Shown: positions 5,165 through 10,987, counted from the stretch's first letter. The stretch is 15,478 bases of DNA from Escherichia coli (GCF_003334815.1 NZ_QOWO01000055.1), one strand, 5' to 3'. Made by a program: numbers and translations. Notes: generated from the sequence alone by a model not told the origin.

Positions 5165-5168
5165 AATT

Positions 5169-5244
5169 TGGCTCCTCTGACTGGACTCGAACCAGTGACA
5201 TACGGATTAACAGTCCGCCGTTCTACCGACTGAACTACAGAGGA
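5169..5244 (-). tRNA. asnV: tRNA-Asn (anticodon GUU)
   Basis: Reverse complement is TCCTCTGTAGTTCAGTCGGTAGAACGGCGGACTGTTAATCCGTATGTCACTGGTTCGAGTCCAGTCAGAGGAGCCA, 76 nt with encoded CCA and anticodon loop CTGTTAA. Gene name assigned by synteny (between nac and erfK in K-12). Confidence 0.96.
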
Positions 5245-5262
5245 ATCGTGTGAATGGGGCGC

Positions 5263-5291
5263 ATATTAATGGCAGTGCATGGTGATGTCAA
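5263..5291 (-). promoter_or_regulatory. Sigma70 promoter of tRNA-Asn (asnV) with GC-rich discriminator
   Basis: On the minus strand: -35 TTGACA (5286-5291), 17-bp spacer, -10 TAATAT (5263-5268), then GC-rich discriminator GCGCCCC before the tRNA 5' end; typical stable-RNA promoter layout. Confidence 0.6.
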
Positions 5292-9353: not shown

Positions 9354-9382
9354 TTGACATTGTGGGTGGGCATCGCTAATAT
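9354..9382 (+). promoter_or_regulatory. Sigma70 promoter of tRNA-Asn (asnW) with upstream AT-rich UP-like region
   Basis: -35 TTGACA (9354-9359), 17-bp spacer, -10 TAATAT (9377-9382), GC-rich discriminator TCGCCTCG; AT-rich tract ATTTCAAATTTAAAAAACAG upstream. Confidence 0.65.
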
Positions 9383-9400
9383 TCGCCTCGTTCTCACGAT

Positions 9401-9476
9401 TCCTCTGTAGTTCAGTCGGTAGAACGGCGGACTGTTAATCCGTATGTCACTGGTTCGAGTCCAGTCAGAGGAGCCA
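9401..9476 (+). tRNA. asnW: tRNA-Asn (anticodon GUU)
   Basis: TCCTCTGTAGTTCAGTCGGTAGAACGGCGGACTGTTAATCCGTATGTCACTGGTTCGAGTCCAGTCAGAGGAGCCA. Name by synteny (between yeeO and yeeN). Confidence 0.96.
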
Positions 9477-9537
9477 AATTTTAGTTTTGAGACATCTCTA
9501 TGAGTCTCAAAACAGTTAAAAAATAAAAGTTATTTTT

Positions 9538-9574
9538 ACCCGGTTACCTTGTAAAAAAGTGACCGGGTTTTTTG
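9538..9574 (+). terminator. Rho-independent terminator downstream of asnW
   Basis: ACCCGGT (9538-9544), long loop, ACCGGGT (9562-9568), followed by TTTTTTG. A separate 10-bp perfect palindrome GTTTTGAGAC...GTCTCAAAAC at 9484-9513 precedes it. Confidence 0.6.
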
Positions 9575-9888
9575 ATTTCTGTGTTTCGTGCGCTTAATCG
9601 AGTCTCACGCTTCAGTGAGCAAGTTGCCCCCCAACAGACATCACGATTCGCAAGGTCAAAAACTCTGTTCCATGAAGTACCGTACAAAGATAAAGAGAAA
9701 AATGCCTTATGCGGGATGTCGCTATCGCGTCTTTATCGGGAAACTATGCGTAATTGCCACTTTGCCTTCTGTAATCAGAAAAAGAAGAACTGGAATTTTA
9801 ATAAATATTATTTCTCTGGGAACGGGGATTTTTTATAATCAATATGACGAGTTGAACATTATATTTTTTATAAGGGTTATATGAGATT

Positions 9889-9919
9889 AAAGAAATCTGC
9901 CGTAAAGACAGATTTCTTT
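9889..9919 (-). terminator. Stem-loop downstream of yeeN (putative terminator)
   Basis: 11-bp perfect inverted repeat AAAGAAATCTG / CAGATTTCTTT with a 9-nt loop, 10 bp past the yeeN stop; the flanking U-tract on the minus strand is weak. Confidence 0.4.
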
Positions 9920-9928
9920 AAAATATAA

Positions 9929-10645
9929 TTAGAGATTTGCGACGTTATGATAAACTTTTTGTACATCGTCGTCATCTTCAAGGGCATCAACAAGCCCTTC
10001 AAAGATTTCTAAATCTTCTGGGGAAAGCTCAACTTCAGATTGCGCAATCATTTCTAATTCTGTTGTTGAGAACTCAGTGATTCCAGCTGCTTTTAGAGCC
10101 GCGATTCCTTTATGAAGGTCAGTAGGTTCGGTATAAATAACAATGTTACCTTCTTCTTCAGTCACATCACGAACATCAACTTCAGCTTCAAGTAAAATTT
10201 CAAAAATATGGTCAGGGTCTGATCCTTTAAATACAATCACACCCGTATTGTCAAACATATAGCTGACAGAACCTGCCGCTCCGATATTGCCGCCTTTTTT
10301 ATTGAAAATTGTGCGAACGTTAGCAATCGTACGGTTAACATTTGAAGTCAATGTCTCGGCGATAATCATTGAGCCATTAGGACCAAAGCCTTCATAACGG
10401 CCCTGCACGAACGTTTCATCTCCGCCGCCTTTGGCTTTATCAATTGCTTTATCAATAACGTGCTTTGGAACTTGTGCCTGCTTTGCACGTTCAATAACGA
10501 ATTTTAAAGATGTGTTTAATTCTGGATCGGGTTCACCTTGTTTAGCAGCAGCATAGATTTCTACACCGAATTTTGCATAAATTTTAGACGTTGCACCGTC
10601 TTTAGCCGTTTTTTTAGCAACAATATTGGCCCATTTACGTCCCAC
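9929..10645 (-). CDS. yeeN: YebC/PmpR-family transcriptional regulatory protein YeeN
   Basis: 238-aa ORF ([31 protein letters not shown]...), characteristic YebC-family N-terminus; matches E. coli YeeN in length. Confidence 0.92.
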
Positions 10646-10987
10646 TGGAATGATCTCCTCGAAAATTTATTTACATTACTGGTAAATCGTTAACATGTGT
10701 TAAATCAGCATATTATATCATAACAGGAAAAATCTCGTCTATTAGAAATAAAAATATTCTAAAGCCATAATCTTATATTTTGTTTTATAAAAACTAATGT
10801 TGTTGGCGGGATTTTTTATAATTATATTTTGAAAGCATACATGCTTTTAATATGCGGAAATCATTAAGACGATAATGAAACTCGCATCTGCCCAAGGAAG
10901 CAAACAGCCCGCGTTGATTGCAGGCTATTTGCCAGATGTCTTACTTAATCCTTCACATCTATTTCTGATGAGAAGGTTCAGAACTTA

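Follow-up and report, generated by a model that had tools for sequence, protein, structure and literature searches.

The asnW-yeeN spacer of Escherichia coli as probable relic DNA between two terminators: an integrase remnant meets the edge of a yeeN cassette

In Escherichia coli, the tRNA gene asnW and the convergent gene yeeN are separated by a spacer of unusual length, which was analyzed here in a 15,478-nucleotide stretch of one strand (GCF_003334815.1 NZ_QOWO01000055.1), termed the window. The spacer occupies positions 9477-9928 (452 bp), between the end of asnW at 9476 and the 3' end of the convergent yeeN open reading frame (ORF) at 9929. It is very probably not a gene, and appears instead to consist of joined relics bounded by two functional terminators. 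Its length would be explained by its contents, namely an island leader with its terminator, the stub of an integrase gene, the stub of a GyrI-like gene and the yeeN terminator. An earlier note on this DNA had drawn attention to a convergent gap of about 450 bp, containing palindromes, an asnW terminator and two ORFs, and had suggested that it could encode a small RNA (sRNA) or be the scar of a past island integration. The length of the gap was confirmed by measurement, and the palindromes, the terminator and both ORFs were found in the sequence where the note had placed them.

The gene order in the window is cobUST-ldtA-asnV-nac-cbl-asnU-yeeO-asnW-yeeN-amn-shiA, a region of E. coli in which the asnW-yeeN spacer is the longest intergenic gap, followed by yeeN-amn (342 bp) and asnV-nac (~295 bp). 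The spacer is essentially that of K-12 (the same 452 bp, 97.5% identity), and is thus an ordinary E. coli spacer rather than a peculiarity of the strain. A 600-base query comprising the tRNA, the spacer and the yeeN 3' end matched 5,425 of the 5,426 complete E. coli genomes, and in 5,398 of the 5,426 a single match, 94-100% identical, covered 80% or more of the query. No spacer features are annotated by MG1655 or PGAP, and in a repeat search of the window the recurring sequences were confined to the tRNA genes with their short flanks, the spacer itself not being repeated. The earlier note had regarded identity with the K-12 spacer, if combined with the lack of an expression signal, as an argument against its own suggestions; the spacer is indeed ordinary in this sense, and the island-scar part is nonetheless supported.

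The evidence for a scar is centered on positions 9634-9713 (+ strand), where peptide and DNA homology identify the 5' stub of a P4-type (Arm-DNA-bind_3) integrase gene, which has lost its start codon and persists as two blocks in different frames. The first block (TDITIRKVKNS, 9634-9666) matches MALTDTAIRK... of integrase gene (int) fragments from Salmonella and E. whittamii, and the second (GQKLCSMKYRTKIKRKM-PYA, 9654-9713, in the other frame) matches GSKLWYMKYRIDEKEKKLAFGPYA of the same fragments. The N-terminal reading of these related fragments is MALTDTAIRKIKPT...GSKLWYMKYRIDEKEKKLAFGPYA, which corresponds to Pfam Arm-DNA-bind_3 (PF13356, also DUF4102), the N-terminal domain of P4-type integrases, and this domain is carried by both the Salmonella and the E. 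whittamii fragments. The window stub is too short for Pfam, and its homology to the PF13356-bearing fragments lies in the peptide blocks and in the DNA, positions 9659-9702 matching codons 35-49 of the E. whittamii int gene at 82% identity (E 1e-6). The start codon and ~63 nt between the blocks are missing, such that ~27 codons are left. The stub starts 158 nt past the tRNA end on the same strand, and the corresponding gap is 161 nt in the pks (colibactin) island, 153 nt in E. whittamii and ~164 nt in Salmonella; an integrase sequence just 3' of the tRNA, in the same orientation and ~150-170 nt downstream, is therefore present.

The position and content of the remnant resemble those of P4-type-integrase islands at asn tRNA genes (the high-pathogenicity island, HPI, at asnT; pks at asnW, asnU or asnV). 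Such islands likewise lie directly 3' of tRNA-Asn in the orientation of the tRNA, their integrase genes start ~150-165 nt past it, the arm-type N-terminal DNA-binding motif (MALTDxxIRK...GSKxWxxKYR) would be shared, and the original flank of the tRNA comes to lie beyond the island, as appears to be the case here. Unlike these islands, the spacer remnant is reduced to its ~27 codons by loss of the start codon, the ~63-nt deletion and a frameshift, and it has neither a catalytic domain nor a flanking direct repeat. A tblastn search with the full pks integrase gave nothing significant for the C-terminal catalytic domain (Phage_integrase, R-H-R-Y) in the spacer or elsewhere in the window, and the stub is therefore a remnant rather than a functional integrase. 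In contrast to the pks int gene, with which the remnant has no DNA homology, its lineage occurs among the closest database proteins only as fragments: the 90 proteins nearest to a 58-residue N-terminus in a word-based search were all fragments of 36-102 residues, from Salmonella enterica, S. bongori, Citrobacter, Hafnia, Pseudocitrobacter, E. whittamii and E. coli. No intact relative was returned by this search, in which distant intact integrases may be missed. Since the 90 closest proteins were all fragments, the lineage looks like an old and decayed one, surviving only as stubs. Integrase remnants adjacent to tRNA genes are familiar as a class, to which this one adds an example that E. coli annotations lack.

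The closest counterparts are the Salmonella pseudogenes annotated as "DUF4102 / Arm DNA-binding domain-containing protein" and a 55-residue equivalent in E. whittamii. Both the leader (a hairpin, termed hairpin 1, plus the terminator) and the int 5' end are homologous to those of the window, and the tRNA family and the yeeO neighbourhood are shared with the E. coli stub. The Salmonella and E. whittamii copies retain an ORF of 55-100 codons that is called by annotation pipelines, whereas the E. coli copy is too degraded. The E. whittamii stub also differs in its position, after the nac-side tRNA, and in the cargo genes that still lie behind it. In that locus (L101, 3772-6862) the same trailer and stub after the nac-side tRNA-Asn are followed by genes for a LysR protein, a short-chain dehydrogenase and a C-terminal Phage_integrase fragment; it is a less decayed remnant, possibly of the same island family. 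In a Salmonella locus (L097, 2971-3537 and 5271-5640), this trailer and an integrase 5' stub are found, in inverted orientation, at each of the yeeO-flanking tRNA-Asn genes, and one of the stubs adjoins an arsenic-resistance gene block.

Upstream of the stub, positions 9477-9633 (+ strand) comprise the asnW 3' trailer and the integrase leader, and homology to E. whittamii and Salmonella suggests that they form the left (attL-side) edge of the ancient island. The trailer (9478-9579) is 79.4% identical over 102 nt to the spacer between the nac-side tRNA-Asn and int of E. whittamii (E 1e-19), and an asnW-type trailer follows both of the tRNA-Asn genes flanking yeeO in Salmonella (70% over 160 nt, E 1.4e-12). 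In contrast to asnW, the asnU and asnV genes of the window and both E. albertii tRNA-Asn copies have a simple terminator 5-6 nt after the CCA. The asnW terminator occupies 9538-9574 (+ strand), with stem arms ACCCGGTTAC (9538-9547) and GTGACCGGGT (9559-9568) and a T-run ending at 9574. When folded sequence by sequence (RNAalifold missed the terminator owing to loop-length gaps), all 13 variants, 11 from E. coli and two from Salmonella, formed a G+C-rich hairpin of 10-13 bp followed by T5-7 at -15 to -25 kcal/mol, and the fold survived stem substitutions, e.g., T-A to C-G. The element is thus predicted to be an intrinsic (Rho-independent) terminator, with the G+C-rich stem and subsequent U-tract typical of this class. 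It was probably donated by the ancient island, and the scar at this asn tRNA dates from before the Escherichia-Salmonella split.

The original flank of the tRNA seems to have been displaced to the vicinity of amn. At 10903-10932 (+ strand), 56 bp from the amn stop and in the orientation of asnW, alignment with E. albertii and asnU reveals an orphan, degenerate terminator of the tRNA-Asn type (AACAGCCCGCGTTGATTGCAGGCTATTTGC), which may represent the old attR-side flank. It is identical at 24 of 30 positions to the E. albertii terminator directly 3' of the amn-side tRNA-Asn, and its alignment with the asnU trailer reaches 10949; these scores were reached in none of 500 shuffles. In E. albertii, amn is separated by 68 bp from tRNA-Asn, and both yeeN and the spacer are absent. 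In view of the orphan terminator and the E. albertii arrangement, ~1.43 kb (9477 to ~10902) looks like an insertion exactly at the tRNA 3' end in E. coli, as would be expected for a tRNA-integrated island. An integration scar at the tRNA is thus supported by the homologies.

The right-hand third of the spacer, a point missed in the earlier note, belongs to a Lactococcus-derived cassette that carries yeeN (9929-10645, - strand; assigned by ORF and homology) as its cargo. The YeeN protein is of the YebC_II type, and its function as a YebC_II translation factor has been described in a paper (PMC12234827) in which the word "horizontal" has no occurrence. YeeN shares 92% amino-acid identity with its L. 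taiwanensis counterpart (MAFFT matrix; 93% in the best tblastn segment), 83-84% with the L. garvieae group and 75-78% with Streptococcus. The L. taiwanensis protein, in turn, is 88-93% identical to the enterobacterial proteins and at most 84% to that of any other Lactococcus; judged by these identities, enterobacterial YeeN nests inside Lactococcus diversity. The G+C content of yeeN (40.2%) is close to that of the L. taiwanensis locus (40.8%), compared with 50% for amn. DNA homology to L. taiwanensis extends over 9890-10654 (81%) and includes the terminator hairpin, and the stretch from 9755/9830 to 10757 shows 85-89% DNA identity in loci of Citrobacter, Superficieibacter, Kluyvera, Shimwellia, a Raoultella metagenome-assembled genome and Salmonella.

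The yeeN terminator hairpin (9889-9919, - strand; assigned by sequence and fold) has arms AAAGAAATCTG (9889-9899) and CAGATTTCTTT (9909-9919) that pair at 11 of 11 positions, as the earlier note had described, and are extendable to 13-15 bp. Its symmetric arrangement of A-tract, stem and U-tract is that of bidirectional terminators between convergent genes, and it is likely to act in both directions, although its U-tract, unlike that of usual intrinsic terminators, lies within the stem. Only one of its 31 columns varies among 12 strains spanning E. coli diversity, whose alignment also served for the ORF and variation analysis below. Neither this hairpin nor that at 9538-9574 was called by a simple terminator scan, termination at both being a prediction from sequence. 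A hairpin occupies this position in all of the enterobacterial cassettes and in L. taiwanensis, in which the stem sequence is different. Adjacent to it, the AT-rich intergenic part of the cassette (9816-9888, - strand; G+C ~26%) is common to the enterobacterial cassettes to ~9828-9830, including TTGATTATAAAAAAT, and is the most indel-prone part of the spacer within E. coli. On the other side of the gene, the yeeN promoter and 5' untranslated region (10646-10757, - strand) also belong to the cassette, homology to the enterobacterial copies stopping at 10754-10758, and the -10 region TGATATAATAT is kept in L. taiwanensis as well. Compared with the Streptococcaceae yeeN/YebC_II genes (PMC12234827), E. 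coli yeeN shares with the L. taiwanensis gene most of its protein sequence (92%), the promoter -10 region and the position of the terminator hairpin, and differs from it as a solitary import beside a tRNA, with the downstream GyrI-like gene apparently present only as a stub.

This second stub (~9755-9815, - strand) would be the 5' end of a GyrI-like gene that travelled with yeeN, and was assigned by DNA homology to stubs in Citrobacter and Kluyvera. In L. taiwanensis, a gene for a GyrI-like small-molecule-binding protein (PF06445, E 3e-10) follows yeeN in the same orientation. The stubs of Citrobacter R56 and Cu233 (L010 and L011) match the N-terminus of the GyrI-like protein with scores of 89 and 53, against a null of 26+-4 (0 of 300 shuffles). 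Positions 9755-9815 are DNA-homologous to the stubs in the Citrobacter and Kluyvera loci L010, L011, L005 and L018 (0-1 of 500 shuffles), and show no homology to the stub-less loci L006, L007 and L009. The connection was made through the Citrobacter stubs because a tblastn search of the window with the GyrI-like protein from Lactococcus gave nothing at E <= 1. Continuation of the stub to ~9725 (GCGATAGCG versus Lactococcus GCGATAGGCG, by eye) is a weak hint.

Taken together, these features suggest the following history. An island with a P4-type tyrosine integrase would have recombined with the 3' end of the tRNA-Asn gene beside amn, placing its leader and int directly 3' of the tRNA and pushing the native terminator away, to what is now the degenerate sequence at 10903-10932. 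The island would then have decayed, leaving the leader (9477-9633) and ~27 integrase codons (9634-9713). From the other side, a cassette of ~1 kb would have arrived from an L. taiwanensis-like donor, carrying yeeN, its promoter, the terminator at 9889-9919 and the start of the GyrI-like gene. With the two stubs facing each other, the gap would measure ~450 bp rather than ~100 bp. In the present-day arrangement, the hairpin and U-tract at 9538-9574 would end asnW transcription, the symmetric hairpin at 9889-9919 would end that of yeeN, read-through on the asnW strand would be stopped by Rho just inside yeeN, and the spacer middle (~9580-9885) would have no function of its own. Hairpin 1 (9484-9513) is a conserved element of the asnW precursor, in which its U.G pairs, described below, suggest a role; that this would be 3' processing or protection is a guess. 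The native asnW terminator is thus probably decaying beside amn while an island-derived one serves asnW. The spacer alone matters little: what looks like an empty 450-bp stretch of the best-studied genome would consist of terminators and two pseudogene stubs, which cautions against taking it for an sRNA or small-protein locus.

Several observations weigh against this account. The ~40 bp at the junction of the two stubs (9714-9754) showed no significant homology, and no homolog was found for 10758-10902. A direct repeat of the tRNA 3' end (CCAGTCAGAGGAGCCAA, with up to 3 mismatches) occurred only in the three tRNA genes of the window; since no 17-bp repeat survives, the right boundary of the island would be set by the orphan terminator alone. 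Recombination between tRNA copies could have produced the E. albertii arrangement by secondary deletion, in which case it would not be a true empty site. The window translation IKIPVLLFLITEGKVA was not significantly similar to the Lactococcus GyrI-like protein, and the better-preserved Citrobacter stub gave no Pfam match, so that the window stub is tied to Lactococcus transitively, an assignment held with moderate confidence. yeeN may have come as island cargo or have inserted later. The conservation of hairpin 1 since the Escherichia-Salmonella split hints at a function that a relic account does not specify. Finally, the expression evidence consists of one published K-12 dataset (Adams et al. 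2021, PMC7815308).

In the Term-seq supplements of that study, the interval 2,057,500-2,058,099 contains the mature asnW end (2058025) in three conditions, and the published lists contain no RNA 3' end inside the spacer (PMC7815308). No stable RNA thus ends inside the spacer in K-12. A Rho-termination region peaks at 2057519 (- strand), equivalent to window position ~9984 (+ strand) and antisense inside the yeeN 3' end, with coverage of 1121/26 without and 843/182 with bicyclomycin (p = 3.7e-37; PMC7815308). From the location of this peak, some transcription evidently crosses the spacer, reaches past the yeeN hairpin and is cleared by Rho. Among Rfam 15 models searched at a permissive E-value, only tRNA reached its gathering score. 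The best sub-threshold scores were those of manA-II (31 of 100 bits), STnc370 (27 of 54) and OrzO-P (25 of 60), all of them rejected as terminator look-alikes.

The best surviving alternative, though an unlikely one, is that the asnW 3' trailer (9477-9574), ~98 nt after tRNA processing, is a functional small RNA, either a sponge like 3'ETS-leuZ or an Hfq/ProQ ligand. The 3'ETS-leuZ sponge is a tRNA 3' external transcribed spacer RNA, and the asnW trailer resembles it in being structured and in ending at an intrinsic terminator. Its architecture (a hairpin, an A/U-rich linker, a terminator hairpin and a U-tail) resembles that of Hfq-dependent sRNAs, and it is presumably co-transcribed with a highly expressed tRNA. 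Hairpin 1 (9484-9513, + strand; a sequence assignment), a 10-bp stem with a 10-nt loop and no U-tract, supplies a further argument. Its arms, GTTTTGAGAC (9484-9493) and GTCTCAAAAC (9504-9513), pair perfectly (10 of 10), as the earlier note had reported. The pairing is retained in 13 sequences, and at two pairs the retention reflects double compensatory changes in Salmonella. Within E. coli, A-to-G changes convert pairs to U.G, which hold only in RNA of the + strand. In contrast to 3'ETS-leuZ, the asnW trailer is known here from sequence and has no Term-seq 3' end at its terminator: the mature tRNA end was found in all three conditions and none at the U-tract, which argues against a stable trailer above threshold. 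The trailer also has no Rfam match above noise (manA-II, at 31 bits against a gathering score of 100), and its linker and terminator stem vary freely among strains, 30% of the columns being variable.

An independent sRNA or antisense RNA gene with its own promoter in the mid-spacer (~9575-9888) is considerably less likely still. In its favor are a weak promoter-like site at 9822-9795 (- strand), a weak terminator-like site at 9813-9838 (+ strand), good conservation of 9575-9700 within E. coli, and folding of the spacer region that is better than that of dinucleotide shuffles on both strands (z = -5.3 on the + and -4.3 on the - strand). The excess folding energy, however, is due to the three hairpins at the spacer edges. 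The terminator-like site, TCTCTGGGAACGGGGA followed by T6, was the sole site called by the simple scan, but it is probably not functional, since K-12 has G's in place of the T-run and the site is indel-prone among strains. The mid-spacer has neither an Rfam family nor a curated RNA 3' end, homopolymer indels are frequent in it, and its sequence is accounted for as pseudogene stubs. In E. coli CFIAFB20180511 (locus L100, 4098-4870), moreover, IS1 (IS1A) takes the place of most of the spacer middle, leaving the asnW trailer and yeeN intact. The sRNA suggested in the earlier note is not supported, because no Term-seq 3' end falls inside the spacer.

A small protein encoded by the spacer has very little credibility. 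An 88-residue ORF with a TTG start (9572-9838) and a 98-residue ORF with a GTG start (9588-9884) do exist, and within the latter an ATG-started ORF of 60 residues (9702-9884), preceded by a purine-rich stretch, is open for at least 50 codons in all 12 of the aligned strains. However, the 88-residue ORF is intact in 4 of the 12 strains and the 98-residue ORF in 5, the remainder (7-8 of 12) bearing frameshifts or stops. In the first 50 codons from ATG 9702, polymorphisms are distributed over codon positions as 7/11/9, with 23 non-synonymous changes, many of them radical, against 5 synonymous ones. A coding signature (a conserved frame, or an excess of synonymous or third-position changes) was thus absent from the spacer ORFs in these strains, and the frameshifts and the lack of codon-position bias identify the 88- and 98-residue ORFs as non-coding, in agreement with the earlier note, whose proposed conservation check was carried out here. 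The open frame would be a leftover integrase frame continuing through antisense pseudogene DNA, and neither PGAP nor MG1655 annotates a gene at these ORFs.

The least credible of all is a specific origin of the scar from pks or the HPI: both integrate at asn tRNA genes (PMC8209727) with P4-type integrases ~160 nt past the tRNA, but no DNA homology links the spacer to the attL-int region of pks (best match 18 nt, E 0.012), similarity to the pks integrase protein is insignificant, the stub relatives form a separate, fragment-only lineage common to Salmonella, S. bongori, Citrobacter and E. whittamii, and in the pks-positive strain UTI89 the island follows the nac-side tRNA-Asn and the asnW-yeeN spacer is intact. 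The UTI89 position is consistent with published configurations and the known asnV-asnW inversion (PMC8209727). The earlier note, which had called for a blastn comparison with pks junctions, is accordingly upheld as to the kind of event, by the P4-type integrase stub and the displaced terminator, and not as to pks.

The yeeN cassette is a more interesting lead than the spacer and merits dedicated study as a case of repeated single-gene relocation. Tentatively, and with rather less than even confidence, a single-gene cassette of ~1.1 kb (yeeN with its promoter and terminator) from an L. taiwanensis-like donor may now reside at nine or more unrelated chromosomal sites in Enterobacteriaceae. The sites include the asnW-amn gap of E. 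coli, STM4498-STM4500 of Salmonella, and several in Citrobacter, Kluyvera and Superficieibacter (loci L005-L019, including L016, and L103). The flanks differ by locus (pth-ychF, a csp-like gene, btuE, an ars operon, STM4498-STM4500 and others), and no tRNA or integrase was found near the other enterobacterial copies. No mobility gene, terminal repeat, or plasmid or phage carrier was detected, the plasmid and phage searches returning only mis-filed chromosomes or distant Firmicute yebC genes. If the proposal is true, the cassette would represent an unrecognised route of single-gene spread, and the YebC_II factor of E. coli would be a Firmicute import. As a Lactococcus-type gene with a foreign promoter and terminator, E. 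coli yeeN bears on how its expression and its redundancy with yebC are read. A further apparent E. coli site, between icd and a pdeG-like gene (L005, labelled E. coli SCPM-O-B-8794), was rejected, the record probably being mislabelled and from another genus; the yeeN-icd arrangement was found in none of the complete E. coli genomes, and the icd end matched a single E. coli record at 78%.

The amn-yeeN gap (10646-10987) is very AT-rich (G+C 23-39%), and the shared cassette accounts for no more than the 112 bp nearest to yeeN. In K-12 this gap has been listed as a "promoter island" that is bound by H-NS and has a constitutive RpoD promoter (PMC3661553, PMC3946193), which fits the presence of foreign DNA.

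On the other side of the spacer, asnW itself (9401-9476, + strand) was identified as tRNA-Asn(GUU) by ARAGORN and by Rfam (tRNA, 72.6 bits), and is annotated in MG1655 as b1984. A candidate sigma-70-like promoter, TTGACA-17-TAATAT, precedes it at 9354-9383 (+ strand; a match at 10 of 12 consensus positions). asnV and asnW, together with their upstream flanks (5165-5268 and 9377-9480), form a 104-nt inverted repeat of 96% identity on either side of the 4.1-kb nac-cbl-asnU-yeeO segment, for which an inversion has been reported in many pks-positive B2 strains (PMC8209727). The orientation of yeeO also differs in E. albertii and Salmonella.

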